DNA of 33,139 nucleotides from a virus (taxonomy: Duplodnaviria; Heunggongvirae; Uroviricota; Caudoviricetes), in the IMG/VR virus record IMGVR_UViG_2703719355_000019, one strand, 5' to 3'. The notes under the pieces were generated by a model. The model saw nothing but the letters and a program-made list of their open reading frames with translations, was not told where the DNA came from and searched no databases. The position numbers and the translations under genes were made by a program. Shown one piece after another: positions 14,746 through 33,139 of this stretch. Each line of letters opens with the position of its first letter. The stretch's first letter is position 1.

Positions 14746-15915
14746 TTACTTATCTCCTGCGTAACGGGCGACATCCTCTGGATCAACGCCCATCATTGAA
14801 CAAATGGCGATATCGACATCAACGTCATCGCCGGTTTTAATCTGCGCCGGAGCCGGTGACGGCGTTTTGGGTGGTTTGCCGCCGGTCTGGGTGCTGCTGA
14901 GTGCGGCAAGCGGGGTGGTTTTATCCAGCCAGGTTTTAAAACCGTTAATATCGCGACGAGCGTAATCTTTCGCCCAGTCTTCCAGCGTCGGAAGCAGTCG
15001 CCCGTCAGACAGCGCCGCCTGAATCAGTGCCCCGGCTTCGGCCTCACCGGACTGTTGCGCCAGTACGGCATAACGCCCCTGAAGTTCTTCATATGCCGTC
15101 AGAGGAATATGCTTCGTCGGGTCATAGGCATTTGCTGACAGGCTGGCGATTTGCTCGTCTTTCTGATTCAGCAGGGTCAGCAGGCTGACGGATGCCGCCG
15201 CCGTTCCCTGACCGTTCGAAATCATGTCAACGACCTTTTGCAGCTCGTTTTTGATATCTTCCGCCGTTGAGGTAACCGGGAGGTTAAGCATCCAGCGCAG
15301 ACTGGACAGCAAATCGTTTAACAGTTCTTCATCCACCGTTGTGGTCTCCGTTTCAGTTGACAGACTCGCCAGACGGCTGGCCGCAGCCAGCATGACTGCA
15401 TCCATACCGTCCAGCGCCGGGGTATTGGTCAGCGCAGCATGTAACAGCTCCAGCACTTCGCCGCGCTTGTTGTAGGCAAAAACAGGGGAAATAAATTTGT
15501 ACTCACCGGCGGCAATCATGGCCGCCGCGTTCTCCGTCCACTCCACACCAGTGGCATACAGGCCCGCACCTTCTCGCCATTCCACCTGGCTGAACCAGCC
15601 CGCCGCCGGGGCGGGCTTGCCGTTGTTTACGGCGCGCAGCGTCTGATGTTCGTAATCAATGACAAAAGGCGTGGTACGGGCGGCCACCTGTGCGACAATC
15701 TGCGCGGCCAGTTCAGTGGTCAGCACCCATTTACCGCTTTCGACTTCATCGGTATGTGGGCGACCATCCACCGCGCTGAACTCGCCCGCCGGAAACAGCT
15801 GGATTTCGCTGTGGGTTGCTTTGGTAATTTCGAGGCTTAACGCCGCAATGTTCATCTTCATACGCGGCATGATGACGGAAGGGGAACACGGGGTACTGTG
15901 GAGGGGGTTCAGCAC
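14746..15915 (-). CDS. head protease/scaffold protein (Mu I-like)
   Basis: 389-aa ORF; track start is GTG at 15915; internal ATGs at 15870, 15861 and 15855 are alternative starts. Confidence 0.8.
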   Translation of the reverse strand: MLNPLHSTPCSPSVIMPRMKMNIAALSLEITKATHSEIQLFPAGEFSAVDGRPHTDEVESGKWVLTTELAAQIVAQVAARTTPFVIDYEHQTLRAVNNGKPAPAAGWFSQVEWREGAGLYATGVEWTENAAAMIAAGEYKFISPVFAYNKRGEVLELLHAALTNTPALDGMDAVMLAAASRLASLSTETETTTVDEELLNDLLSSLRWMLNLPVTSTAEDIKNELQKVVDMISNGQGTAAASVSLLTLLNQKDEQIASLSANAYDPTKHIPLTAYEELQGRYAVLAQQSGEAEAGALIQAALSDGRLLPTLEDWAKDYARRDINGFKTWLDKTTPLAALSSTQTGGKPPKTPSPAPAQIKTGDDVDVDIAICSMMGVDPEDVARYAGDK

Positions 15916-15953
15916 CCTGCCATAACGGGAAAGGATAAAAGGGGAAATAAAAC

Positions 15954-15978
15954 CGTTTTTAAAACCCTTTTAAAAACG
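15954..15978. repeat. perfect 11-bp inverted repeat CGTTTTTAAAA-CCC-TTTTAAAAACG in the G-I intergenic region
   Basis: Read directly; a second inverted repeat GCCTCAT-CC-ATGAGGC lies at 16014-16029. Confidence 0.6.
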
Positions 15979-16070
15979 ATTCTGACGATATTTATGGGGT
16001 ATGGTGCTGTTATGCCTCATCCATGAGGCGTTTATGCTTTCACAGGCGATTACAGCGCGTTTCTGGCCAT

Positions 16071-16622
16071 TCAGTCAATCACACGCGCAAAATAGCGGTT
16101 TGCGGTGTTCTCCAGCTCGTCGATGTCGTCCTGTACAAGCTGAAGGAAGGGGCGCGCGGGCATGTTGACCGTATACGCTCCGACCGTTGCGCTCTGTACA
16201 AAATTACTGTTGCGCTTTTTCACAAAGCGGGTGCTGACGCTGCCGTTTTTGTACTGTTTAAAATACAGGTTCTGCGTCCGTGCCTGATGGCGGATTTCGC
16301 CGCCTTCGTTGTGGATACGGGCATAACGGACGTTTGTCCCGACCGTGGCCTCGTTATTGTTAACCGCAGAGCGGATACTGGCAGCCAGTCGCCCGGACTT
16401 CTGAAGGATTTGCCCGGGGCCGCGTCGCTTCGCATAAGCCGGACTCCAGCCCATCCATTTCGGGCGACCCTGTTGTTCAAAGTTAGTCTCAACCGCATCC
16501 AGCATGGAACCCGCAAGCGCTGTCATCAGGTCGCGCCGGTCCTTCACGGAACGAATCAGTTTCCCCAGCGTGGTGTTATACGCGCTTAAATCAATCTTAA
16601 TATCCAGTTTACCGCTGCTCAT
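16071..16622 (-). CDS. virion morphogenesis protein (Mu G-like)
   Basis: 183-aa ORF directly after the F-like gene with ATGA-type overlap. Confidence 0.8.
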   Translation of the reverse strand: MSSGKLDIKIDLSAYNTTLGKLIRSVKDRRDLMTALAGSMLDAVETNFEQQGRPKWMGWSPAYAKRRGPGQILQKSGRLAASIRSAVNNNEATVGTNVRYARIHNEGGEIRHQARTQNLYFKQYKNGSVSTRFVKKRNSNFVQSATVGAYTVNMPARPFLQLVQDDIDELENTANRYFARVID

Positions 16623-17785: not shown

Positions 17786-19367
17786 TCAGTCGCCCCCAGA
17801 TATCCGCCACAAAGAATGCCTGTGTCAGCAACTGCCGCAGCGTTTCATCCGGCAGTTCCGGCCATGCTTCCGCCAGTACGTTCATGGCCTCGTCTGCATC
17901 CCGGCCTTCCTGTATGGCCTGCACCAGCGGGGCCACCAGTTCGTTCATCCCCTGCGCGATGGCCTCTGCCGGAAGTTCTGCCCGGTCGATGGCGCGTTGT
18001 GCCGGGTCGTCCTCCCCGTTGTCCTGCTGACTGAGTGCGACGACATTCAGCCGCTCACGCAACTGGCTGAGGCCCGCCTGCACAGGGAGACGCTGTGCCA
18101 CCGGCACCAGTACCTCTTCGCCGTCTTTCGGGGTGGGGATACCGGTTTTTTTGCGTACCCACGACGCCGGGATATCCTTCATCCCCACATTGTTGAGCAG
18201 CACGCTGACGGCATCCGCCACGCCCTTAATGTCGGCTTCCTGCTGCACATCAAACACCAGTCGCGGAAGACGGCGTGACGGGATATCCTGCCAGCCGTTG
18301 AGACTGGCCATCATCTGTATCAGACTGCTGAACATGCCGGACAGCTGGCGTGCATCAGCGGTCAGAATGTCGTGCCGGACCTCGTTATGCACATTACCCA
18401 GTGCGTTGGTGGAGGTTTTACCGTCGGCCTGGCTGGTCAGCGTACTGCCCAGAATCACTTTTGAGGTGGTACGCTCCGCCCATTCCACCATCGACATGAA
18501 CGCCTCCGGTCCGCCGGATGCGGCTTCCTTGAACTCGATTTCGTTACCCTGCGGCAGGGCTGCCACCGCTTCATGCCCCAGATTGACCAGCGCCTCAAGA
18601 ATGTTATCCCGGTCTTCGTCACTGGTGCCCTGTGCATAGTAGGCAATGCGCGCCGGAAGGCCGTAAATCTCCAGAAATTCCGCCATATCACGCAGCGCAA
18701 AGTTTTTAAACAGATACGGCCAGACCAGTACGCGGAACAGGCCGGATGAACCCAGGAACCCCGACCGGGCGTTGTAACGGTGAACCAGCCAGCCGAATGG
18801 CCACAATGCGGAACCGTCCTTACCGTCTTCCCCACGGTTGCCGTCATCCAGCCGGAGTTCGTCATTGTGTTCCGGCAGGGTAATAAACCAGTTATGCGGG
18901 CGCAGCGTCACCGCATCCGGTAACCACGTTTTATCCACGAACGCCCAGCTGATTTCCTGACAGCTGAAGCCGTAACCGACACTGCTCATCCCGTTGAGGA
19001 TGATGTCCTCCATATCCGGGATACCGTGCAGCCACTCATCCACGGCGGCGGCCAGCTCCTTTTCTGCCTTCGAGGCATTGCGGGGCGGCTCCACCGACCA
19101 GTCCAGCGTCAGCAACGCTTTTTTGCGCTTTTCCATCTCGGCGAACAGATGGCCGTCACGTTCTTCCATATCCGCAAACAGCATCGCCTGCGCCGGAAGA
19201 TAACCGCGTTCGGCAGCTTCCAGAATGCGCGGCAGTTTTCTGATGTTCAGACCACGGGACGGGTGGTCGGGATAAATGCGCAGCCGTTCCGCCACTCTGA
19301 CCGACTGCGTGGTTTTGAGTGCCTCACGTTTCAGCGGGCGTCCGTAAATATCAACAAGCTGTGCCAT
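17772..19367 (-). CDS. portal protein (Mu gp29-like)
   Basis: 531-aa ORF following the large terminase; ATG 3 nt after the terminase stop. Confidence 0.9.
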   Translation of the reverse strand: MAQLVDIYGRPLKREALKTTQSVRVAERLRIYPDHPSRGLNIRKLPRILEAAERGYLPAQAMLFADMEERDGHLFAEMEKRKKALLTLDWSVEPPRNASKAEKELAAAVDEWLHGIPDMEDIILNGMSSVGYGFSCQEISWAFVDKTWLPDAVTLRPHNWFITLPEHNDELRLDDGNRGEDGKDGSALWPFGWLVHRYNARSGFLGSSGLFRVLVWPYLFKNFALRDMAEFLEIYGLPARIAYYAQGTSDEDRDNILEALVNLGHEAVAALPQGNEIEFKEAASGGPEAFMSMVEWAERTTSKVILGSTLTSQADGKTSTNALGNVHNEVRHDILTADARQLSGMFSSLIQMMASLNGWQDIPSRRLPRLVFDVQQEADIKGVADAVSVLLNNVGMKDIPASWVRKKTGIPTPKDGEEVLVPVAQRLPVQAGLSQLRERLNVVALSQQDNGEDDPAQRAIDRAELPAEAIAQGMNELVAPLVQAIQEGRDADEAMNVLAEAWPELPDETLRQLLTQAFFVADIWGRLNAES

Positions 19368-23177: not shown

Positions 23178-23359
23178 GAGTTTCTCCTGTAAATCTGAGC
23201 CACTGACGGCCCGTAAATAACACCCTGTCAAAGGCACAAAAGCCTTTTGCAGGGCGCTATCCCTTAAGGTGCCTTGTGGTCTGAGTGGACAGGGTAAACG
23301 GTCTGGTGTGGTGGGTACTGCTGGGGGTGTTCAGCACCCCGCGGCAGCGGGGTGATAAA

Positions 23360-23638
23360 TCAGAAGCGGGAAAGGGAATCCGGCGTAATAAGAGGTTTAT
23401 TACAAAGCCGAGCAGAGGTGTTCGCCTTTTCCATCGCTGCGCGCATCTCGTTTTCGCTGGCGATGATGTCAGCAATGGCACACTGCAACGCTTCTTCCTG
23501 AACAACCATATCCGGTTGTTCGGCCATTCGGTTTAACTGACTGGCCAAATTTTTCATATAAGCAAAGCGACGTCCGGCAGCATCCCGGGCCTGCTCTGAG
23601 TAGGCCGTATACTCGCCAAGTGCCATATAGTTGGTCAT
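23360..23638 (-). CDS. hypothetical protein (92 aa)
   Basis: Start at ATG 23638, preceded by AGGAG with a 6-nt spacer; the longer track ORF would start within the upstream terminator. Confidence 0.55.
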   Translation of the reverse strand: MTNYMALGEYTAYSEQARDAAGRRFAYMKNLASQLNRMAEQPDMVVQEEALQCAIADIIASENEMRAAMEKANTSARLCNKPLITPDSLSRF

Positions 23639-23664
23639 AAGTGTCTCCTTTTTTCTGAGGCCCA

Positions 23665-24132
23665 TTAATCAAAAAGCCCCACCTGGGTGGGGCTTTTCAG
23701 CGAAGTCTGTTTTTGTCGTCGGTGTATCAGCTGCCATGCGTACCGGTCTGAAATGCCGTAACGGGGACAGAGCAGTGCCAGCGCCTGCCGGTGTGAGCAT
23801 CCGTCTTTTATATGCTGCTGTAAATCAGCCATAAAACGGGTGTTACGCAGGGCACGTAATGCATGATCGCAACGGGGAATGTAAAACGGAGCACCGCCAA
23901 GAAAGCGGATCAGTTTGTTGATTTCGTCTTCGGTCAGCACATCATGTAACAGGGCATGGACGCCGCCGGTGCGTTCAGCGTGTGCGCCGGTTTTACCGCT
24001 TAACGTCACGCCACCAAAAGAACGGATTAACCGGGTCAGGGCGGGGAAGCCAATCACGCTAATCAGTTGTTGCACGGAGTCGGGCAGCAGTGCCTGCGCA
24101 TCGCGAAGATCTGTTTCACTGAAGGTCTGCAT
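23665..24132 (-). CDS. Mor/C-family transcriptional activator
   Basis: 155-aa ORF with GGAPFYIP motif followed by a C-terminal helix-turn-helix-like segment; located after gemA as in Mu. Confidence 0.8.
   Translation of the reverse strand: MQTFSETDLRDAQALLPDSVQQLISVIGFPALTRLIRSFGGVTLSGKTGAHAERTGGVHALLHDVLTEDEINKLIRFLGGAPFYIPRCDHALRALRNTRFMADLQQHIKDGCSHRQALALLCPRYGISDRYAWQLIHRRQKQTSLKSPTQVGLFD
23671..23697. terminator. bidirectional intrinsic terminator at the 3' end of the Mor-family gene
   Basis: A5-GCCCCACC-TG-GGTGGGGC-T4; perfect GC-rich stem flanked by an A-run and a T-run. Confidence 0.6.
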
Positions 24133-24161
24133 GATGGCGTCTCCGGTAGTAACTTACTGTT

Positions 24162-24189
24162 ATTATAGCCATACATGATCGCCTGTACA
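24162..24189 (-). promoter_or_regulatory. sigma70-like promoter upstream of the Mor-family gene
   Basis: On minus strand: -35 TGTACA (24189-24184), 16-nt spacer, -10 TATAAT (24167-24162); GGAG 8 nt upstream of the ATG at 24132. Confidence 0.4.
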
Positions 24190-24194
24190 GACCA

Positions 24195-24220
24195 CAAAAA
24201 AGCCCCTGCAAGGCAGAGGC
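24195..24220 (-). terminator. intrinsic terminator downstream of gemA-like gene
   Basis: Minus-strand RNA GCCUCUGC-CUU-GCAGGGGC (8-bp stem with one G-U pair) followed by U6; begins 8 nt after the gemA-like stop. Confidence 0.6.
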
Positions 24221-24227
24221 TGATTCT

Positions 24228-24641
24228 TTATTGTTTACGTGCTGCTCTGGCTCGTTTTCTGGCGTCTTTTGTCAGCGCCACCATCACCCCGAACAGTTGA
24301 TCATCTGTCAGCCATTCGATCACATGTTGCTTATACATGTGAGATGCCAGTCCTTCCGCATATGCCCAGGAACGACCGGCATCAGCCAGCAACGCTTCAA
24401 TTTTGGATAATACCGATTTTCTGCTCATTGCCACACGTGGGCGGCGACCTTTACCGGCGGGGGCTTTACGCGGAAATCCCTGTTCGTGCATGTATTCCCG
24501 GATGATGCGCAGTTCATCGAGGTTGCAGCGTGTGGTGCTGGTTTTACCGGTCAGGCGGGCCAGCGTCTGGCGATAAAGGACATCATCCCACCCCAGATAC
24601 GCCTGACCGGCTTTAATGGCTCCGATCATCTTTTTCAGCAT
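24228..24641 (-). CDS. gemA: GemA-like protein (Mu gp16-like, DUF1018-like)
   Basis: Start at ATG 24641 (MLKKMIGAIKAGQ..), preceded by GAGGA with an 8-nt spacer; basic C-terminus; position before the Mor-family gene. Confidence 0.7.
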   Translation of the reverse strand: MLKKMIGAIKAGQAYLGWDDVLYRQTLARLTGKTSTTRCNLDELRIIREYMHEQGFPRKAPAGKGRRPRVAMSRKSVLSKIEALLADAGRSWAYAEGLASHMYKQHVIEWLTDDQLFGVMVALTKDARKRARAARKQ

Positions 24642-24891
24642 GTTTGTTATCCTCAAAACGCACGGTAAAACGTGAAACGCCAATCCCTGACAGGAACGCA
24701 GCGGCACGGTCAAGAGACAGCCACGTCTTGTAATCGCCACGGCGTTCCTGTAGAAAATAGGACACCCCGGCGCGACGATTCACAGCAAAGAGGTGATACA
24801 CACCACCGAACCGCTGCACGACGAACTCATCCACGCCACCGCTTTCAGCCTGTTGCCTGAAAGCTGCCATTCCGATTTGTTCAATCTTCAT
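24613..24891 (-). CDS. hypothetical protein
   Basis: Minus-strand ORF; start uncertain (ATG 24891, no clear SD; track start GTG 24927); overlaps gemA start by 29 nt. Confidence 0.4.
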   Translation of the reverse strand: MKIEQIGMAAFRQQAESGGVDEFVVQRFGGVYHLFAVNRRAGVSYFLQERRGDYKTWLSLDRAAAFLSGIGVSRFTVRFEDNKHAEKDDRSH

Positions 24892-24958
24892 AATGACCAA
24901 AACATCACTTTTGGCAGACCAAAACACATGTTTTGGTCTGCGTTTGATTACTGTTCAA

Positions 24959-25177
24959 TCAACCCGCGTAATCGGGGCCGTGTTCCCATCTGGCATCGAG
25001 TATTTCCGTTCCATCTGTCCGGCATGGGTTATCAAGTGCCATTTTTCCGCACTCCCCATACTCGACATCGACAAAATCAGCAATATCATTGTCCGTTGCG
25101 TTATCAGGAACGTCGATTTCAACCGTTACGGTGATAGTTTTCATCAGGTTGTTACTCCGTGATTCAGAAAATTTCAT
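24959..25177 (-). CDS. small acidic protein (72 aa)
   Basis: ATG at 25177; alternative ATG at 25144 (MKTITVTVEIDV..); rich in Asp/Glu. Confidence 0.5.
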   Translation of the reverse strand: MKFSESRSNNLMKTITVTVEIDVPDNATDNDIADFVDVEYGECGKMALDNPCRTDGTEILDARWEHGPDYAG

Positions 25178-25185
25178 GCCGGGAC

Positions 25186-25596
25186 TCAGTATGTGAAATA
25201 GACAGTTGCCACACCGTTATAGTGGTCAAACGACACAGCGTTTACCTCATAACTGGCCGGGAGCTTCGAGCCAAGAACGTATCCGGGCCACGTTTTCCAT
25301 GGAATTTCTCTGCTCTCACTGTCGCCATATACCGTACATCCCAGTGAGCCTACAGCTTCATAAGAACGCTTACCGCACGTTATGAACCCCAGATGTTGCT
25401 TACTGCCCTTAACAGAAATCGGGAGAGCACTGGCTGATGCGTTAGCAGCGTCCCGCTCCTGTTGGCTTGCGATATTCGCAGAGTTTGCAGCAGCTACAGC
25501 AGCTGTGGTCGCAGCGGTAGATGCCACAATAACTGCTGAAGCCTGCGCCTGTTGGGTAATTGTCAGCAATGCCGCCACAAAAATCATTTTCTTCAC
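25186..25596 (-). CDS. secreted protein with N-terminal signal peptide
   Basis: GTG start at 25596 preceded by AGGAGG with a 6-nt spacer; MKKMIFVAALLTITQQAQA signal-like N-terminus; mature part contains two Cys. Confidence 0.7.
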   Translation of the reverse strand: MKKMIFVAALLTITQQAQASAVIVASTAATTAAVAAANSANIASQQERDAANASASALPISVKGSKQHLGFITCGKRSYEAVGSLGCTVYGDSESREIPWKTWPGYVLGSKLPASYEVNAVSFDHYNGVATVYFTY

Positions 25597-25608
25597 CTGG
25601 CACCTCCT

Positions 25609-25785
25609 TTACATACCGTGATTTTTCCTGCGGTTTTGCGCCGCGCTGGGCTTTTTGCAACAACTGTGCCCCATAACCCCTAAAAACCCTGTCAACCTCA
25701 ACCGTCTGTTACTAATCCTCACCCACCGCCAGACATCAAAGCCGTTTCTGCGAGCTAACAGAATTTTTGCCTTACGGTTTTTCAT
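25609..25785 (-). CDS. small basic protein B (58 aa), tandem paralogue
   Basis: ATG 25785-25783 overlaps the stop of paralogue A (ATGA); translation MKNRKAKILLARR..KKPSAAQNRRKNHGM. Confidence 0.45.
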   Translation of the reverse strand: MKNRKAKILLARRNGFDVWRWVRISNRRLRLTGFLGVMGHSCCKKPSAAQNRRKNHGM

Positions 25786-25958
25786 CGTACTGCGTACCCT
25801 TTATTCCGCCTGTTCTGTGACGCAGTAGGCTTACGCTTTGCGGCAAAAGCCACCTGACCAAATGGATGGAGTACCGCTATCTTATGGTTGCTAATAACCA
25901 GCTCCACCACACGCACAGGTCGCTGTAAAAGAAGGCGTTTTGCTTTACGGTTTTTCAT
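25782..25958 (-). CDS. small basic protein A (58 aa), tandem paralogue
   Basis: ATG 25958-25956 preceded by GAGGAAGG; translation MKNRKAKRLLLQR..KRKPTASQNRRNKGYAVR; the 112-aa track ORF 26120..25782 is an overextension. Confidence 0.5.
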   Translation of the reverse strand: MKNRKAKRLLLQRPVRVVELVISNHKIAVLHPFGQVAFAAKRKPTASQNRRNKGYAVR

Positions 25959-25959
25959 C

Positions 25960-26151
25960 TCATCCTTCCTCGCTTTTTGCAGTTTCAAACCACGCATCCT
26001 GCCCCACAACATCATCACCACATGGTGGTTCAGATTCTGAATAGCGACCGGCCCACCAGTATTTACCATTACGATGCTTTGCTGTGCCGCAACGCTGGCA
26101 TATGAAAATTGACCCATCACGCTGATAATGATGGATGTGCTCGTTACTCAT
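25960..26151 (-). CDS. small Cys/His-containing protein (63 aa), possible zinc-binding
   Basis: ORF with CQRCG..H motif; start overlaps upstream gene by 4 nt. Confidence 0.5.
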   Translation of the reverse strand: MSNEHIHHYQRDGSIFICQRCGTAKHRNGKYWWAGRYSESEPPCGDDVVGQDAWFETAKSEEG

Positions 26152-26372
26152 TGTGCAGCCTCCTGTTTTGCCACTTTAAACGCCCGTAACATCGGAACCG
26201 TTTTACCGGTGATGACGGTTTTCATTAAAAGGCCGCCGCCACTCTGGTGGCGCACTTCAGGAGCAACAAACAGCGCCGCATCCACAACCCGACAATAGCG
26301 ACGGAACTCCCAGAACCAGCAGGTAACAATGATTTTTGCGGTGACTCCGTAGTCATAAAATTCAATATTCAT
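26148..26372 (-). CDS. hypothetical protein (74 aa)
   Basis: ORF translationally coupled to both neighbours by 4-nt overlaps. Confidence 0.5.
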   Translation of the reverse strand: MNIEFYDYGVTAKIIVTCWFWEFRRYCRVVDAALFVAPEVRHQSGGGLLMKTVITGKTVPMLRAFKVAKQEAAQ

Positions 26373-26596
26373 TTGCAGTTAAACCTTCTTTTGTGACGTT
26401 CTACAGCGGCTTTCATGGCGTTGTGCACGGTTCTTTTAATAATCCGGCGTCCCGCACTGTCATAGAACCGCCACCGGGAAGCCTCCGGATATTTAGGGAA
26501 CTCAACCGCCGCGCTGTCGTCATTCATCCTGTATTCGTGGCGTTCTCCGGGCGGCTGGTATATTGCTTCGGTAACACTGAGAAGTTTAAAAGCCAT
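26369..26596 (-). CDS. hypothetical protein (75 aa)
   Basis: ORF starting 3 nt after the stop of the upstream 237-aa gene. Confidence 0.5.
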   Translation of the reverse strand: MAFKLLSVTEAIYQPPGERHEYRMNDDSAAVEFPKYPEASRWRFYDSAGRRIIKRTVHNAMKAAVERHKRRFNCK

Positions 26597-26598
26597 CG

Positions 26599-27312
26599 TT
26601 ATCCCCTCCCCAGTGCCAGCGGCCTGTTGTTCTGACCATTAACTCCCTGATGCAGTCTGGCGTTTTTCCCGGCGATAAAACCGGCTGTAGCAGCAAACTC
26701 TGCACCCCTGCACGCTTTAGCTGTGCGCATATCCCCGTCGCGCAGCCCTTTAGTGCTGTGCAGGTTCTTTCTGTAAAGCTCAAGGCGGCTTTTTTCTTCC
26801 GGGGAGACGTCATACACCGCAATGACATCACGGGCACCAAAGACCCAGCCTTCGCAGAACTGGTCGCCACGGACCACCCGCGTGGACGGACCGCAACGTT
26901 TGCAGTGTTTATCCTGATATTTCTTGCGCTCTGCCATCATCTGACGGGAAAGCACATCAAACGCATATGCCGCAATTTCCGGGCGGCTGTCAGGACCATA
27001 AAAACGCACGTAACGTTTGAGTGAACCAGAAGCCCGGTATTCACCTGAGATGTAACACTCGACACCGAAGGCTTTACATACCAGGTCACACAGGATGTGC
27101 ATATAACGCGGCGGCGTACTGGCATCACTCGGCGCACCCGCGCTGGCAGCTTCCTGAATGTCGAACAATTCCGCATCGTTTTCGCTGATACCATGCTGGC
27201 GCATATAAGCCTGGGCTTTTGCAATAGCGTTAGCGGCTTCTTCCGGGCTTGATGTTCCTCTGGCAAGGCGTAACAGTTTTTTGATTTTGGCGATGTATTT
27301 ATTTTTGCTCAT
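26599..27312 (-). CDS. DUF2786-like phage protein (237 aa)
   Basis: N-terminal KIKKLLRLARGTSSPEEAANAIAKAQAYMRQHGI resembles the DUF2786 motif; GGAGGG 8 nt upstream of ATG 27312. Confidence 0.65.
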   Translation of the reverse strand: MSKNKYIAKIKKLLRLARGTSSPEEAANAIAKAQAYMRQHGISENDAELFDIQEAASAGAPSDASTPPRYMHILCDLVCKAFGVECYISGEYRASGSLKRYVRFYGPDSRPEIAAYAFDVLSRQMMAERKKYQDKHCKRCGPSTRVVRGDQFCEGWVFGARDVIAVYDVSPEEKSRLELYRKNLHSTKGLRDGDMRTAKACRGAEFAATAGFIAGKNARLHQGVNGQNNRPLALGRG

Positions 27313-27694
27313 TGTCTACTCCCTCCAACAACGTGGTGATGAAATGTCCAGCCATTACTCCGGCATCACGATAAGCGCATCGTGTTTTGCTTTCTGATTG
27401 TTTACGCCGGGGAACGGAATAAGCTGATGCAAACATCTCCGCCCTGAATTGCTGCATTGTCAGGACTTTCAATTGCAGGAGACGCTCTTCATCGCTGCAT
27501 ACTGTGCTCATTAATCCATCAAGGATGACATTAAAAGCCCGGTATACCGGGTCATCTTTTGTTCGTTTTGTCAGGGCCACAGCACTGATTATTGACAATG
27601 CGCACTCAAGCTTTTTCAGCTCTGATAAGTTGTCGTTCTTTATTTCTGCATTTTTATTTAGCCATTCAACAGGTGACCAGACTTTATCTTTCAT
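27299..27694 (-). CDS. hypothetical cargo protein 2 (131 aa) behind duplicated leader
   Basis: ATG 27694 preceded by AAGGGGA; N-terminus MKDKVW shared with cargo protein 1, rest unrelated. Confidence 0.6.
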   Translation of the reverse strand: MKDKVWSPVEWLNKNAEIKNDNLSELKKLECALSIISAVALTKRTKDDPVYRAFNVILDGLMSTVCSDEERLLQLKVLTMQQFRAEMFASAYSVPRRKQSESKTRCAYRDAGVMAGHFITTLLEGVDNEQK

Positions 27695-27744
27695 ATACAA
27701 ATCCCCTTAATTCAGGCGTAAGCCAGCCCCGGCGGGTTTACGCC
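27681..27744 (-). repeat. duplicated 64-bp leader element, copy A
   Basis: Identical to 28306-28369 except one base; contains inverted repeat GGCGTAA..TTACGCC, the SD and the first codons of the downstream gene. Confidence 0.85.
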
Positions 27745-27773
27745 ATATACAAATAAAATTAAAAACAGACTTA

Positions 27774-28319
27774 TTAACTACGACGTTCAGCTTTCCGGTA
27801 ATGACGGTCAACAGACTTTACGAACGCCTTCACATCACGGGAAATCGAATCCAGCGGATAATATTCATCCAGCAGTTCCATTCCGCTGAATCGAATCTGA
27901 AAAAAATCAGGCTTATCTTTATATGACTCCATCAGGTCAATAAACCGCAGCTGACGCGGGAGGGATTCCTGCACACCTGAAATAGTGAGCAAATCATCTT
28001 CAAGGATGTATGCGAGGTCTTCCATATCCTTACAGTCAGACAGCATGGATATTCTTGTCAGTATGTTCCGTGTGGCGATATACAGCGCTGCTGTGTCATT
28101 CGCCATCATGGCGAACAAATCCCCCTGAATATACGCCCCGCTACTGGCCACAGCATTCCCGGCAATCTGGGCATCAAGCACTACATCCATAAAATTACCA
28201 GGTGCTCCCAGACAACCCAGCAAGGATGACGCCCATAACGCTACATTGGTTAATTTCTCAGATGAACGGGTAGCAAAACCTTCAGGAGTAACAATAAAAT
28301 CCCATACTTTATCTTTCAT
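27774..28319 (-). CDS. hypothetical cargo protein 1 (181 aa) behind duplicated leader
   Basis: ATG 28319 preceded by AAGGGGA; N-terminus MKDKVW. Confidence 0.65.
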   Translation of the reverse strand: MKDKVWDFIVTPEGFATRSSEKLTNVALWASSLLGCLGAPGNFMDVVLDAQIAGNAVASSGAYIQGDLFAMMANDTAALYIATRNILTRISMLSDCKDMEDLAYILEDDLLTISGVQESLPRQLRFIDLMESYKDKPDFFQIRFSGMELLDEYYPLDSISRDVKAFVKSVDRHYRKAERRS

Positions 28320-28369
28320 ATATAAATCCCCTTAATTCAGGCGTAAGCCAGCCCCGGCGGGTTTACGCC
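28306..28369 (-). repeat. duplicated 64-bp leader element, copy B
   Basis: See copy A; the two copies are 625 bp apart. Confidence 0.85.
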
Positions 28370-28400
28370 TGTTTTAAATAACAATTAAAAATGAATTAAA

Positions 28401-28592
28401 TTAATGTGCTGCTTTCAGTGTTTCGACCTTTACGAAATAAGGCTCGACATTAATTTCAACCACACAACCACATTTAAAATCTCTGGCCGGTGCAACAGTT
28501 TTTACCACCCGACCACCACGCACCGCCTGATGTGCAATGTGCATGAAACGAGTACCAGGCGGATATAACTGATTAAAGCGTTTCGCGTTCAT
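28401..28592 (-). CDS. hypothetical small protein (63 aa)
   Basis: ATG 28592 (MNAKRFNQLYPPG..); start chosen inside the longer track ORF 28718..28401; overlaps upstream gene by 20 nt. Confidence 0.35.
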   Translation of the reverse strand: MNAKRFNQLYPPGTRFMHIAHQAVRGGRVVKTVAPARDFKCGCVVEINVEPYFVKVETLKAAH

Positions 28593-28806
28593 GAATCGGC
28601 TTCCATCCTTTCTGGTGAGCATTGGCACAGAACTGTGCCCGGTGTTCTGCCCAGATGCGGCGCAGGGTGCTACACGGGCTTTGCGCTGCCTTACGCCACA
28701 GCTTTTCAGCCTCGGCATAATCGCCGCGTTGTTCTGCTCTGGACGCGCCCAGCGAATACGCCGCGCAACTATTTCTGGCTCTGTACTCTTTGATATCCTG
28801 ATGCAT
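28573..28806 (-). CDS. small protein (77 aa), possible ANR-like regulator
   Basis: ATG 28806 one nt after the upstream stop, preceded by AGGGG; RGDYAEAEKLWRKAA and IWAEHRAQFC motifs resemble small ANR-type phage regulators. Confidence 0.45.
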   Translation of the reverse strand: MHQDIKEYRARNSCAAYSLGASRAEQRGDYAEAEKLWRKAAQSPCSTLRRIWAEHRAQFCANAHQKGWKPIHERETL

Positions 28807-28807
28807 G

Positions 28808-29452
28808 TTAAACCCCTGCAATATCAAGCGGGATTGCGCGGTATTCATCAGAATCACCGACGCGCTCATACACGCGGATATAGCTTCTGCTACCAACCAC
28901 CTGGACGGCTTCACCAATCAGTTTCATGGCGTTATCCCAGCGTTCCTCCGTAATATCGAGACGACGCAGAGCCAGAACGCGACCGGTGTTGATGTTGCCT
29001 TCCTTGTCCGTGCTGAATGCCTCACTGATGATGGCCTTAATTTCAGGGCGTGCGCCTTCCGTCCAGTCAGCCAGACAGTCATCAATCAGCGCCTTCGCGG
29101 TCTGAATGCGTTCATCAAGCGCGATACGGTCCTGCATGGCGCGCTGAATCTTGTAACGCCCGTCAAAGCTGTACAGCGTGATATTCCCTTTTTTACCGCC
29201 TTTCACAGCGCCGTATTTCTCCGCCGACAGGTCAATAAATGCCTGAATATCACCAAACGCACGCAGCTTCAGTTCACGCAGTGAGGCGGAGGCAGCAATC
29301 ACCATCTCCACAAGCTCACCGACCAGCTGCTCACGGTCGCGGTCAATATCTTTGATAAGACTTTCAGGCGTCATCACACCACGGGCATCAACCCAGTAGC
29401 CTTCCTGCACTTTATTTTTTGTATATTGCTTAACTTTGTTTTCAGTCATCAT
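28808..29452 (-). CDS. conserved Mu-like early-region protein (214 aa), tentatively DUF3164-like
   Basis: Long ORF in the early operon; family assignment is from memory and untested. Confidence 0.65.
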   Translation of the reverse strand: MMTENKVKQYTKNKVQEGYWVDARGVMTPESLIKDIDRDREQLVGELVEMVIAASASLRELKLRAFGDIQAFIDLSAEKYGAVKGGKKGNITLYSFDGRYKIQRAMQDRIALDERIQTAKALIDDCLADWTEGARPEIKAIISEAFSTDKEGNINTGRVLALRRLDITEERWDNAMKLIGEAVQVVGSRSYIRVYERVGDSDEYRAIPLDIAGV

Positions 29453-29481
29453 AATTAAATTACCTCAGTGATATTTACAGA

Positions 29482-29697
29482 TTAATTTGTGTTATGTGCG
29501 CGAGGCGCAACGTTTTCAGAAAAAAGATTCACGCCGTTATAGTCATTTCTGAGCGTTTCCTTGATAACATCATGTAATCTTGTTGCCACCTGAAACTCCT
29601 TTTCGGAAGCTCCGTCCTTCGAATAACTCCCCGTGGTCTGGGTTAATACACAGCCTTTTTCATCGGTATAGATAATTACTTCTAACTTAACCGCCAT
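29482..29697 (-). CDS. hypothetical protein (71 aa)
   Basis: ORF in the early operon downstream of B. Confidence 0.5.
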   Translation of the reverse strand: MAVKLEVIIYTDEKGCVLTQTTGSYSKDGASEKEFQVATRLHDVIKETLRNDYNGVNLFSENVAPRAHNTN

Positions 29698-29709
29698 TCT
29701 GATTTCCTC

Positions 29710-29949
29710 TCATTGCCATACGACGGTGCAGCCGTCGATACAGGACGTTTTAACCACGCGGCGCAGGCCGCTGAATGTCTGGATGATTTCCGTTACCGGC
29801 CATACAGGACCACCCACGGGCGGGCAGGCATAAACCACAGGTAAACGGTGATGTTGTCCCGTTACACGACCACCAGTGGTGTGGATGGCCACACGGGCAC
29901 GGGAACGGACGGCGTTAATGGTCTGCTTGTCCATCGTCTTGTTCTCCAT
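29710..29949 (-). CDS. hypothetical protein (79 aa), first gene after B
   Basis: ATG overlaps the B stop (TGATG); Cys-containing. Confidence 0.5.
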   Translation of the reverse strand: MENKTMDKQTINAVRSRARVAIHTTGGRVTGQHHRLPVVYACPPVGGPVWPVTEIIQTFSGLRRVVKTSCIDGCTVVWQ

Positions 29950-30842
29950 CAGTGAATTAACATTTCTGCGAATTTATCAATGGCCTGCACACTGACCGGC
30001 GCATCGCTGATATCACAAATCCGGTACACACCACGCGCCAGCTTGAACAGACGGCGGGCATTACCCAGCGAACGTGTATAAAGCGCCTCGCTGATTTCCG
30101 GCTCTGCTGCTTCCGGCATCAACCCGGTAGCTATCTGGTTAAAATCTTCCTGCGACAACGTATCGCCCAGGTTAAGCGCCAGCGCCACGCGGCTGTATAA
30201 CTGGGCGAACTCACCACGACGCCCCTTGAGGTTAATCAGAAGGCGAGGCATACCCGCCAGAACAACCCCGATACCCGCTTTGTCATGCAGACGGCGCAGA
30301 ACCTCCAGGGCGCGATAGGGGAGCAGTTCAGCCTCGTCCACCATCAGCAGACGACCGGAATCACGCAGTTCGCGCACACAGGCATCTATCAGTTCGTGAA
30401 TGTTGCCGCGAACCTTTACCCCCAGCTGGCGGCACAACTCCTCAAGCAGTGTTCTGGCTGTATAGCCCGGGTCAGCCTCAATCAGGACCGCATCCCGGTT
30501 TCTGGCGGCGTATTCACGCAGAATCATTGTTTTGCCAAGACCTGCTGCGCCATACAGCACACAGATTTCACATTCCAGGTGAGCGTAGGCCAGCACCTCC
30601 AGTCCTTTGGCAGTCATACTGGTGGTCACAAACTTTGCTTTAATACGGCGGCTGTTTTCCTTTTCCCGCTCACGGGTCACAAAGGCAGAAATGCGTTCTT
30701 CAATATCAGCCATATCGCCCTGATATTTACCCTGTAAATACTGGCTGATAACGGCGCTGCTACGCCCAATGGCACGGGCGACGTGGGTCTGCGTATAGCC
30801 GCGACGGGCCATTACGTCATTTAATTGCGTAATTAAACTCAT
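29949..30842 (-). CDS. B: DNA transposition ATPase (MuB-like, AAA+)
   Basis: 297-aa ORF with Walker A GAAGLGKT; directly downstream of the transposase. Confidence 0.9.
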   Translation of the reverse strand: MSLITQLNDVMARRGYTQTHVARAIGRSSAVISQYLQGKYQGDMADIEERISAFVTREREKENSRRIKAKFVTTSMTAKGLEVLAYAHLECEICVLYGAAGLGKTMILREYAARNRDAVLIEADPGYTARTLLEELCRQLGVKVRGNIHELIDACVRELRDSGRLLMVDEAELLPYRALEVLRRLHDKAGIGVVLAGMPRLLINLKGRRGEFAQLYSRVALALNLGDTLSQEDFNQIATGLMPEAAEPEISEALYTRSLGNARRLFKLARGVYRICDISDAPVSVQAIDKFAEMLIH

Positions 30843-30860
30843 AATTAAATACCTTTTAAA

Positions 30861-32903
30861 TTAACGGTTGTTTGTGCCGTTTTTCTTTAAATTGCGCTCG
30901 CGTTCAGATGCGAATAAATAAAGTTCTTCTTTTTCCTTTTTCTCCGGGCGCTCCAGTCCATATCCCAGATTAAAGTCAGGCTTCTGCGTAATAGCCGGAG
31001 TAAGCTCGCGTTTAGCCTCTTCGATTTTCTGCGTGGCCCGTGCAATGCGGCCCCTGACGCGTTTCTCCAGTTTTTGTTCGATAACTGGTTTAGCGAAGGC
31101 ATCAACCTTGTTACCGTTCCAGATGGCATCGCAGATATAAGAGCCATCAGCCCGCCGGACAATGACGCTGTTTGCATCATGAATATCGTAACTGACCCTG
31201 ACTTCATTCCCGTGCTCTGCGGCCAGCTCATACGAGTAATAAATATTGTTGAATAACTGAATTTCCCCGCGAAATGTTTTGCGCGTCACTTCCGGCCTGA
31301 ACATTTCATGCAGTTCTTCCGGCGACAGGAAATCAATTTCAACATTCTGCTCTTTTATCAGTTTCCGGCGATACGCTGCCGGGCTGTAATGCTCGCCATC
31401 CTCTTTGCGAGGAAGGCTGCTGTGTGGCCGGTTGTTATAGCGTCTGACCTCCAGCTCTATGGCTGCCATCAGTTGCTCAAAGGTAGGGATTTCATCCCTC
31501 GCCTTAACCTGCCGTTTTGTCAGCTCTTTCCCTTTGTGGGTGGCCTTAATGGCTGACTGCATAATCCGTTGCTGCATCATTACGGTTTCCTTGTCTGCAT
31601 CCCTTGCGCAGTACGTCTGGAAACTCAGGGCCACGTCTTTGGGTATTTCCTTGTTAACCCTTTCAATCACCCCGCGCCCCTGCGGGTTACCTGGTATCCC
31701 CGTGTGATGTTCCACACCCAGACGGGGCAGAATCCCGGTAATATCGGCATCAAGCACCCGGTTTTTTTCGCCGCCCCCGTTATCGGAGTAATAAATCAGC
31801 GGTATCCCGTGCTGTGCCATGCCGTAACGTAACGCATCAGCAACGGCTATCACGTTCTCCGACAGGGACAGTGACCAGCCCACAATAAAGCGTTGTCCTG
31901 CATCCATAACCAGCGTCACTTCTGGCCGGAAAATATTGCCGGTCAGTGGGTTAAACGCGGTCATTTTCATACAGTGACCATCCCCGACCCATACCGCATT
32001 AACCGGTAATGTGCTCCAGTCGCGCCGCACAAAAGGATTGAGCGAACGCCAGGCTGAACCGGTGGAGCGGAAACGTTCTTTAACAATCACCGGAACGCTG
32101 CTTAACACCCGTCTGACTGCGTGAACTGAAGGCAGTGCTGCCAGCATTCCCGTATCATTCGCGTGTTTTTCATGCCACCAGGCTGAAAACTCGCGATACG
32201 CATATTCAACGGTCGGTCGCTTCCATGAACGATAGAACATAAAGAAATCGCTCAACCACCAGACCTGCTCCCACGGTGTTCCCTTATGATGACCGGGAGC
32301 CAGTAACGCCAGTAACTGATTGGCATCACCGCGCGCCATCACCCAGCTGGAGTACCAGCTATCCAGGCTGCCGGTGCTGACACCGGTTCGCTTTCCCTGA
32401 CGTGCATTTGCAGTATTAGCTGCTTCGATAATGCGGTCAGGTAACGCCCCCATGCGCACACCATCAACGATGTGCTTTAAAGCGGCCTTCCTGGTCATTC
32501 CGGCATACTCGCGCAGCTTATGCACTTCAGTAGCCAGCAATATCCGCGCATCAGCGATGGCCTTTTGCTTGTCAGTCAGTGCCTGAACTTCACGTAATGC
32601 CAGTTCCGGGCATTTGACCATCACCTCCAGTTCATCGCGAACGGCGACGTTTTTAACTGCCTTCTGCTCAACCACGGCGGGCAGTTGCGTATCTTCCAGA
32701 ACCTGATGGGTCAGGCGCTTACGTAAAACTTTCTGCGCTTCAGCGGGCAGGCAGTCGATGTGATACTCGAATGCTTTGGTGCCTTCGCGCTTGCGCTTCC
32801 ATTCCGGGTGCGTCTCTGTGATCCGATTGAGCGTCCAGCGCACCCCCTGAACTGTACCGGGCAAACCAGGAAGACCGGCCAGCTCATTGGCTGAATAAAA
32901 CAT
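30861..32903 (-). CDS. A: DDE transposase (MuA-like)
   Basis: 680-aa ORF between the ner-like and B-like genes; size and position match MuA. Confidence 0.9.
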   Translation of the reverse strand: MFYSANELAGLPGLPGTVQGVRWTLNRITETHPEWKRKREGTKAFEYHIDCLPAEAQKVLRKRLTHQVLEDTQLPAVVEQKAVKNVAVRDELEVMVKCPELALREVQALTDKQKAIADARILLATEVHKLREYAGMTRKAALKHIVDGVRMGALPDRIIEAANTANARQGKRTGVSTGSLDSWYSSWVMARGDANQLLALLAPGHHKGTPWEQVWWLSDFFMFYRSWKRPTVEYAYREFSAWWHEKHANDTGMLAALPSVHAVRRVLSSVPVIVKERFRSTGSAWRSLNPFVRRDWSTLPVNAVWVGDGHCMKMTAFNPLTGNIFRPEVTLVMDAGQRFIVGWSLSLSENVIAVADALRYGMAQHGIPLIYYSDNGGGEKNRVLDADITGILPRLGVEHHTGIPGNPQGRGVIERVNKEIPKDVALSFQTYCARDADKETVMMQQRIMQSAIKATHKGKELTKRQVKARDEIPTFEQLMAAIELEVRRYNNRPHSSLPRKEDGEHYSPAAYRRKLIKEQNVEIDFLSPEELHEMFRPEVTRKTFRGEIQLFNNIYYSYELAAEHGNEVRVSYDIHDANSVIVRRADGSYICDAIWNGNKVDAFAKPVIEQKLEKRVRGRIARATQKIEEAKRELTPAITQKPDFNLGYGLERPEKKEKEELYLFASERERNLKKNGTNNR

Positions 32904-33139
32904 TACGCCGCCTTACTGGCATACCGGCTTGGCCAGATCTCCGCAGGTTCCACACCAATAGCATCGGCTATGATGCGTTCATATTTAGGGCATGAGCGAT
33001 ACAGTGCATTTTTTAAAGAGTCTTTTTTTAGACCAGCGCGTTCAGAAAGTTCACGCAATGTAAAACCTTTGGTGTGCACAGCGGCAACGATGTACTCGCG
33101 GTGCCAGTCTTTGTTCATTACTTCATTTCTAACCATCAT
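32903..33139 (-). CDS. ner: Ner-like DNA-binding regulator
   Basis: 78-aa ORF with DWHR and IWPSRY motifs shared with Mu Ner; ATG at the last three bases of the window. Confidence 0.85.
   Translation of the reverse strand: MMVRNEVMNKDWHREYIVAAVHTKGFTLRELSERAGLKKDSLKNALYRSCPKYERIIADAIGVEPAEIWPSRYASKAA

Follow-up and report, generated by a model that had tools for sequence, protein, structure and literature searches.

A candidate strong gyrase site and a predicted late promoter in the central G-I gap of a Mu-like prophage of Escherichia coli

We analysed a stretch of DNA of 33,139 nucleotides (the window) that carries a Mu-like prophage, and we propose, at a probability of roughly 0.5, that the gap between its genes G and I is a central cis-acting spacer that combines the late promoter of I with a strong gyrase site of the Mu type. 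The downstream third of the gap (approximately 15862-15913) would hold the promoter of the I head operon, with a box, GCTGAACCCCCTC, that would be read by the single Mor/C-family protein of the phage. The rest of the gap would be a Mu-type strong gyrase site with the cleaved G-segment near 16011/16012. A conserved block at 15943-15984 (block 2) would be wrapped around the C-terminal domain of GyrA, with A/T clusters once per helical turn and G/C clusters between them, and a second conserved block at 16049-16062 (block 1) would belong to the other arm. Processive supercoiling that starts at this centre would, as in Mu, help to bring the two ends of the prophage together for replicative transposition after induction. 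A palindrome and U-run inside the gap may in addition act as a terminator of the upstream late transcript, in the E. coli lineage only; this is the role predicted for the Mu hairpin. The position of the gap, its pattern of conservation, its helical phasing, and the shared promoter box are observed directly in the DNA, and we infer that gyrase binds here, where it cleaves, and that the site serves replication.

The central gyrase site of Mu is, to our knowledge, the strongest natural gyrase site known, and it is a standard substrate for work on gyrase mechanism and structure. Central G-I gyrase sites of Mu-like prophages are already known, and the gap described here plausibly adds a candidate to them. 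What goes beyond the ordinary is that its sequence is unrelated to the Mu site and that it has a sharply conserved two-block geometry. If our proposal is correct, the gap would be a natural comparison to the Mu site, carried by 55 of 5,426 complete genomes of E. coli and by several other enterobacterial genera, with the reference EPEC strain E2348/69 among the carriers. It could then help to distinguish the features that gyrase reads (arm phasing and spacing) from those that it tolerates (core sequence). If the gap is inactive, position and phasing alone would be insufficient for a strong gyrase site.

Position, extent and content of the gap

On its annotated gene content, the window is an E. 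coli prophage of the Mu-like transposable kind, with its genes on the minus strand. A segment of 601 bases around the gap matches a prophage in E. coli strain 47-1826 at 100% identity and the prophages in the 55 genomes mentioned above at 91-99%. In the RefSeq annotation of the identical DNA, the minus strand carries a Mu-type arrangement of genes that includes a repressor, a Ner-like protein, a Mu transposase, an AAA ATPase annotated at the MuB position, and a Mor-family activator, together with lysis genes, terminase, portal, F, G, protease I, major head protein T, and tail genes. According to this annotation, the G-I gap is the sole non-coding stretch longer than approximately 60 bp in a structural gene block of approximately 24 kb. 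The closest complete prophage is 35,661 bp long, has the ends TGTAAC...CCCCACA, and is 100% identical to the window across the gap. Measured from its repressor end, the gap is at 18,666-18,874 bp, a fraction of 0.523-0.529 of the prophage length, with the Mu cut site at 0.487. The first-pass annotation of this DNA had placed the gap at the G-I junction in the centre of a Mu-like prophage, and both the gene annotation and the distance of 18.7-18.9 kb from the left end agree with it. This is the position of a Mu-type strong gyrase site, that is, between G and I near the centre of a Mu-like phage.

The gap had been described as 155 bp long and is in fact 209 bp (Table 1). The shorter figure arose because a mechanical open reading frame start had been taken at GTG 15915. 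The start of I at ATG 15861 is agreed on by the RefSeq annotation, the N-terminus of Mu gpI (MKK...), and the relatives; in Trabulsiella there is an upstream ATG that is out of frame and followed by a stop after three codons. The gap is 205-209 bp long in most related lineages. No sense-strand open reading frame of at least 20 amino acids is contained in it, in line with the earlier statements that the gap has no open reading frame and that no anti-CRISPR gene sits at this junction. The small open reading frames inserted between G and I that mark the anti-CRISPR locus of Pseudomonas Mu-like phages are lacking here, and the open reading frames in the gap are antisense only (42-188 amino acids). 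Searches with the gap found no match among phage records by blastn and no match in Rfam.

Table 1. Features of the G-I region in window coordinates.
Feature	Position	Strand	Remarks
Gene I homologue, head protease/scaffold	14746..15861	-	true start ATG 15861
G-I intergenic gap, 209 bp	15862..16070	.	annotation and relatives
Late-promoter activator box, GCTGAACCCCCTC	15901..15913	-	51 nt upstream of I start codon; conserved in all lineages
T-rich stretch, TTTTATTTCCCCTTTTATCCTTTCCCGTTAT	15914..15953	-	T runs continue ~11-12 bp phasing in this lineage
Block 2, sense CAGAATCGTTTTTAAAAGGGTTTTAAAAACGGTTTTATTTCC	15943..15984	.	no polymorphism in 16 E. coli variants; proposed wrap region
First inverted repeat, CGTTTTTAAAA-ccc-TTTTAAAAACG	15954..15978	.	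11-bp perfect arms, 3-nt spacer
Predicted gyrase G-segment	15994..16029	.	best centre 16011-16013; alternatives 16000/16001, 16031
Second inverted repeat, GCCTCAT-cc-ATGAGGC (sense GCCTCAT-gg-ATGAGGC)	16014..16029	-	7-bp arms
Block 1, AAACGCGCTGTAAT	16049..16062	-	conserved in all lineages
Gene G homologue, phage virion morphogenesis protein	16071..16622	-	RefSeq annotation of identical DNA, ORF list; upstream neighbour of gap

Identity to the closest genome (L001) is uneven along the window. It is 99.6% in the late region (1662-23347) and only 90-97% in the early region and tail-fibre end (1-1661 and 23348-33139), with 92-97% in the early half. This unevenness indicates recombinational mosaicism among these prophages. 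In L001, the prophage (ends at 3377 and 39037) interrupts a ynfE/ynfF-like molybdopterin oxidoreductase gene. Mu-type transposition is expected to leave a 5-bp duplication; the junction duplication at these ends appears to be only 4 bp (CAAA), and the end assignment may be one base off.

Late promoter of gene I

A late promoter for I had been placed in the gap by the first-pass annotation, and this is supported by a box shared ahead of three late operons. Allowing up to two mismatches, the 13-mer box occurs at only three sites in the window (15901-15913, 4004-4016, and 23323-23335), where by our own arithmetic approximately 0.7 matches would be expected by chance. All three copies (with 0, 1, and 2 mismatches) are intergenic and on the gene-sense (minus) strand, and they precede the I operon, the baseplate operon, and the lysis/head operon. 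The consensus over the copies is GCTGAAC(A/C)CCC(T/C)C. The box is located 50-51 nt from the ATG both of I and of the gene that begins at 3965. Neither gene shows a Shine-Dalgarno sequence, which suggests that their leaders are very short or absent. Relatives were fetched via the G protein and comprise Intestinirhabdus, Trabulsiella, Buttiauxella, a 51%-identical G labelled Martelella, and IMG/VR contigs; those from other genera share the box 51 nt upstream of the I start.

The phage encodes a single Mor/C-family protein, from a Mor-family gene at 23665-24132 located just upstream of the lysis genes. A scan of the gap for sigma-70 consensus promoters found none, as expected for a promoter that depends on an activator. 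With three copies of one box and a phage-coded Mor-family activator, the comparison provides a solid prediction of a Mor/C-activated late promoter for I in the gap. The palindromes are not the activator site; the box is another sequence that lies 40 bp downstream of the first palindrome. We had also considered GCATAAC at 16009-16015 as a Mu-type C box, and dropped it once the shared box was found at the three late operons.

Inverted repeats and conserved blocks

The two inverted repeats that had been reported in the gap are both present, and they differ in how far they stand out from chance. The first extends to 14 bp at 93%, and only three other perfect inverted repeats in the 33-kb window have arms of at least 11 bp; an arm of 11 bp was reached in 0.03% of dinucleotide shuffles of the gap (P ~0.0003). 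The second is on its own within chance expectation, an arm of 7 bp being reached in 11% of such shuffles (P ~0.11). It folds as a 6-bp RNA or DNA hairpin and occurs only in the E. coli lineage; there, a 1-nt deletion within it is found in one variant and C-to-T changes in two. On the antisense (+) strand at 16012-16031, this repeat together with TTATGCTTTC meets simple terminator criteria, and the terminator-like element could halt antisense transcription entering G. Elsewhere in the window, the longest inverted repeats are two perfect 13-bp repeats, one in the early/middle region (24914-24941, GCAGACCAAAACA-ca-TGTTTTGGTCTGC) and one inside the baseplate V gene (4442-4471, GGTATTGCCGTTC-agcg-GAACGGCAATACC). 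A perfect 12-bp repeat at the 3' end of the Mor-family gene (23672-23697, AAAAGCCCCACC-tg-GGTGGGGCTTTT) resembles a bidirectional intrinsic terminator, and its place is that of the predicted terminator after Mu C.

Comparison of related gaps points to spacing within the first repeat. Block 2 contains two T-run/A-run junctions, at 15972/15971 and 15961/15960, and the distance between them is exactly 11 bp in 26 of 26 distinct gap sequences from at least eight lineages with G identity down to 51%. In these gaps the element takes the form C(G/A)TTTTTAAA(A)-spacer-(T)TTTAA(A/C)A. Its palindromic symmetry is perfect for the E. coli type, Buttiauxella, and L114 and nearly so for L008 and L113; it is degenerate in Intestinirhabdus and Trabulsiella, which keep the sequence and the 11-bp spacing. 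Run and spacer lengths compensate for each other (A4-GGG-T4, A5-GG-T4, A5-GGG-T3, A4-GCAG-T3, A4-GGGG-T3, and A3-CGGGG-T3) and the junction spacing is held. On this comparison, it is spacing and not pairing that is under selection at block 2, which points to a constraint on helical phase at the DNA level rather than to an RNA hairpin. The first palindrome is a by-product of two self-complementary T-run/A-run elements one helical turn apart; the inverted repeat arises because TTTTAAAA is self-complementary and present twice. The palindromes had been taken as the functional unit, and the invariant spacing in all 26 sequences, with pairing lost in two lineages, speaks against this. Among relatives, the first palindrome is kept in several lineages and lost in two, and the second is not found outside the E. 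coli lineage.

The gap evolves unevenly. Among 16 distinct E. coli-type sequences, 33% of positions are polymorphic in 16070-15985 and 12% in 15984-15862, with 9-12% in the coding flanks and zero polymorphic sites in 15943-15984. The predicted G-segment lies in the part of the gap that changes fastest among these variants. Block 1 lies 86-89 bp from the first junction in lineages with G at least 76% identical and 78 bp from it in the most distant lineage, and the DNA between the two (first 85 bp) cannot be aligned between genera. Because the block 1 motif is in a different frame in L008, block 1 is conserved as DNA or RNA and not as coding sequence. The G stop codon is TGA here and TAG or TAA in other genera. 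After this stop (16050-16073; also in L005-L007) there are six in-frame codons and then a TAA inside block 1 (…AAC GCG CTG TAA). The T-rich stretch keeps its pyrimidine-rich character in other genera and loses its phase; this lack of conserved phase counts against a gyrase site as judged from the sequence comparison.

The repeats could instead be transcript punctuation only, an explanation that we consider unlikely. The first palindrome and its U-run would be an intrinsic terminator of the lysis-to-G late transcript, the second palindrome would be a hairpin that stabilises the 3' end, and the A/T phasing would be incidental to an AT-rich spacer. The first palindrome folds as RNA at -12.3 kcal/mol and is then followed by UUUUAUUU, as would be expected of a terminator, yet this U-run is found in the E. 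coli lineage alone, and the repeat is kept without it in Buttiauxella, L008, L113, and L114. Its stem is AT-rich, has two G-C pairs only, and was not called by a terminator scan. In favour of this explanation, the Mu record has a terminator predicted by TransTermHP at the equivalent place in the right arm. The C-to-T changes in the second palindrome fit a hairpin, as they sit in the left arm and keep G.U pairs on the sense RNA; however, no sense-strand U-run follows this repeat. Relatives have a clear terminator right after G that is built on block 1, which forms the 5' arm of a real terminator hairpin in Buttiauxella (-15.1 kcal/mol) and in Intestinirhabdus. In both of these, block 2 lies downstream of this terminator and is probably rarely transcribed. 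Intestinirhabdus and Trabulsiella lose the pairing and keep the 11-bp spacing, and the length changes described above preserve the spacing rather than the pairing. A terminator role of the first palindrome may be compatible with a gyrase site but cannot explain the conserved spacing.

Symmetry could also matter at the level of DNA structure. A cruciform extruded under negative supercoiling might serve as a topological sensor or barrier, and a perfect AT-rich 11-bp repeat with a 3-nt spacer and a DNA hairpin of -9.2 kcal/mol (z = -5.4 versus shuffles) is the kind of element that could form one. We regard this as highly improbable, given that the symmetry is degenerate in two lineages that keep everything else.

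A third explanation, about which we are doubtful, is that block 2 is the site of a dimeric or bending protein, either a phage regulator or host IHF, Fis, or H-NS. Two TTTAAA half-sites one turn apart would be bound, and the protein would modulate the I promoter or the domain structure of the prophage with gyrase uninvolved. Two invariant half-sites at a fixed 11-bp spacing are typical of such sites, and IHF, Fis, and HU contribute to the formation of the Mu domain (PMC3820752). When block 2 was inspected by eye, the IHF (WATCAR-N4-TTR) and Fis (G-N13-C) cores were not matched. In most lineages the promoter box follows 59-62 bp downstream of the junction, which speaks for this explanation, but this distance is not kept in L008 and L116 (92 and 96 bp), where the distance to block 1 is 78 bp (L008) and 87 bp (L116). 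The phased signal spans approximately 130 bp, far longer than a dimer site.

Helical phasing and comparison with known systems

The proposal of a gyrase site predicts A/T clusters in phase with the DNA helix. The region 15933-16018 ranks first or second among all subwindows of the 33 kb for A/T periodicity of 10.5-11 bp, scored free of phase; by the same measure the Mu arm is in the top 0.1-0.5% of Mu. In six of eight other lineages, the G-I gap is the top-ranking part of its locus. In its unusually extended series of helically phased A/T and G/C signals, the gap matches the arm of the Mu strong gyrase site, where A/T faces inward and G/C outward. We also used a two-arm template, modelled on the published gyrase motif as a cosine whose A/T peaks are 19 + 10.75k bp away from the centre. 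As controls, the true centre of Mu is an exact local maximum of this template (z = 2.5), and in the E. coli prophage Sp18 the template has its maximum 18.5 bp past the G stop codon, as it does in Mu. The Sp18 gap has a near-palindrome, AAGGTATGCAAATGCATTACCTT (L174 19240-19262), centred at this same predicted gyrase centre 18.5 bp after the G stop. Of all centres in the window, those ranked first (16000/16001, z = 4.1), second (16031), and fourth (16010/16011) fall in the gap. The mean score of nine lineages is highest 40 bp upstream of the first junction, which corresponds to 16011/16012, and the mean A/T profile across lineages has approximately 5 + 5 phased clusters flanking a non-periodic core of approximately 38 bp. 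Scores based on phase only are weak classifiers; a one-arm score puts the true Mu site only in the top 0.5% of Mu.

To approximate the published motif, we fitted a symmetric model by regression, with 424 site scores from published Topo-Seq data and 200 kb of W3110 sequence. The resulting matrix is shrunken (consensus 24.8 versus 36.8 published), with a cross-validated r of 0.82. It scores the Mu site at 8.7 (9.1 where set against the published 14.3), in the top 0.05% of Mu, and the Sp18 site, which is reported to be functional, at 6.4. The gap scores 6.1 at 16012/16013, a value equalled or bettered by approximately 1.7% of window positions, and the relatives score 5.3-9.1. In 23 of 26 related gaps the best centre by this matrix is 38-41 bp upstream of the junction. 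Non-symmetric matrix models with strand assignment were overfitted and were discarded. Scoring by identity or by W/S classes against the published 133-bp consensus was abandoned as well, as the Mu site was not outstanding in Mu and the control failed. Cleavage at CATAA/ATAT (15988-15991), which we had likened to Mu CATAA/AATC, is a secondary phase maximum only. When the published Topo-Seq scores are set against W3110, the residual of the symmetric matrix behaves like the absolute value of a sizeable antisymmetric component, and the published matrix seems less symmetric than described.

Alignment with the strong gyrase site of Mu, which the first-pass annotation had pointed to, gave no blastn match to the gap. 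In an nhmmer search of Mu with a profile of block 2, the right arm was only the fourth-best place (E = 0.67). The homology that Mu and D108 share at this site does not extend to the gap, and the resemblance is at the level of motifs only. There is a short collinear resemblance between Mu (GGGATTTTTAAACCGGTATTTA), the window (GGGTTTTAAAAACGGTTTTA), and Sp18 (GATTTTCTAACCTGTATTTAACGG), and three short motifs recur in Mu and the window: CAGA..TTTTTAAAA, GGG(A/T)TTTT(T/A)AAA.CGGT.TTTA, and CGTTTTAT.T.CC.

We tentatively assign the gap to gyrase because it has the central position, because an exceptional pattern of phasing and spacing is maintained in evolution, and because three scoring approaches agree on one centre. 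The assignment is weakened by the lack of homology, the moderate score from the approximate motif, the fast-evolving core, and the failure of most of the candidates that Pato tested. The earlier idea of a Mu-type gyrase site is supported by the central G-I position and by the phased A/T signal, and not by the palindromes or by sequence similarity to Mu. We regard the strong gyrase site as a candidate with about an even chance of being real. We think it distinctly improbable that the gap represents a second, sequence-unrelated class of central gyrase site in which supercoiling both pairs the prophage ends and gates transcription of the head genes. The conserved blocks 86-89 bp apart would in that case specify both arms around a freely evolving core, and the site would be hard-wired beside the late I promoter and a terminator-like hairpin.

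The predicted promoter resembles the late promoters of Mu (Plys, PI, PP, and Pmom) in that each late operon is preceded by one shared C-rich box, in the lack of a -35 consensus, and in the Mor/C-family activator. The sequence of the box is similar but different, being CCATAACCCC approximately 29 nt upstream of a weak -10 in Mu and GCTGAAC(A/C)CCC in the window. Mu has Mor plus C, whereas the window phage encodes one Mor-family protein, and the placement of the window box 50-51 nt from two start codons, which would leave very short leaders, is a further difference from Mu.

The genome-wide E. coli gyrase motif covers 130 bp, with a 36-bp core between two periodic regions of 47 bp each and a period of 10.75 bp (Sutormin et al. 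2018). The gap shares with it two A/T-G/C periodic regions of approximately 47 bp that flank a core of approximately 36 bp. The score of the window against this motif is moderate and comes from our own regression approximation rather than from the published matrix.

In the Mu record, gyrase cuts 20 bp past the G stop codon in a G-I gap of 196 bp. The right arm contains a terminator hairpin predicted by TransTermHP at 17908-17953, followed by PI at 17977-18043 and the I start at 18056. This arm is the key determinant of the Mu site, and the minor grooves of A/T face GyrA with G/C facing out (PMC10052514, PMC11626157). The window resembles Mu in being a Mu-type E. coli phage with the same G-I junction in a central position. 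Both have an arm on the I side made up of helically phased T/A clusters with TTTTTAAAA-type elements, a hairpin and T-run inside this arm, and a late I promoter approximately 100 bp from the centre. T-run/A-run junctions of this kind are 21 bp apart in Mu and 11 bp apart in the window. The predicted centre in the window is approximately 60 bp beyond the G stop (18 bp in Mu), so both arms would be intergenic, and in contrast to Mu there is a conserved block in the opposite arm too. The approximate motif score is lower in the window than in Mu. Gyrase cleavage and a replication role have been demonstrated for Mu, whereas the window site is a candidate only. Among E. coli genomes, 41 carry the Mu-type gap and 55 the window type, with no accession shared among the matches listed.

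According to a review, only the Mu/D108 and Sp18 sites have been shown to work, and most of the candidates tested by Pato failed to replace the Mu site; Sp18, from E. coli O157:H7 Sakai, is the one non-Mu site reported to be able to do so (PMC10052514). Sakai was matched by blastn with neither the Mu-type nor the window-type gap. The arm of Sp18 is visibly related to Mu (20 of 24 bases in GATTTTCTAACCTGTATTTAACGG), whereas the arm in the window is not. Like the window, Sp18 is a Mu-like E. coli prophage, with a G-I gap of 176 bp at a fraction of 0.47. It too has phased TTTAA-type steps 10-11 bp apart, and the approximate scores of the two sites are similar (6.4 for Sp18 versus 6.1 for the window).
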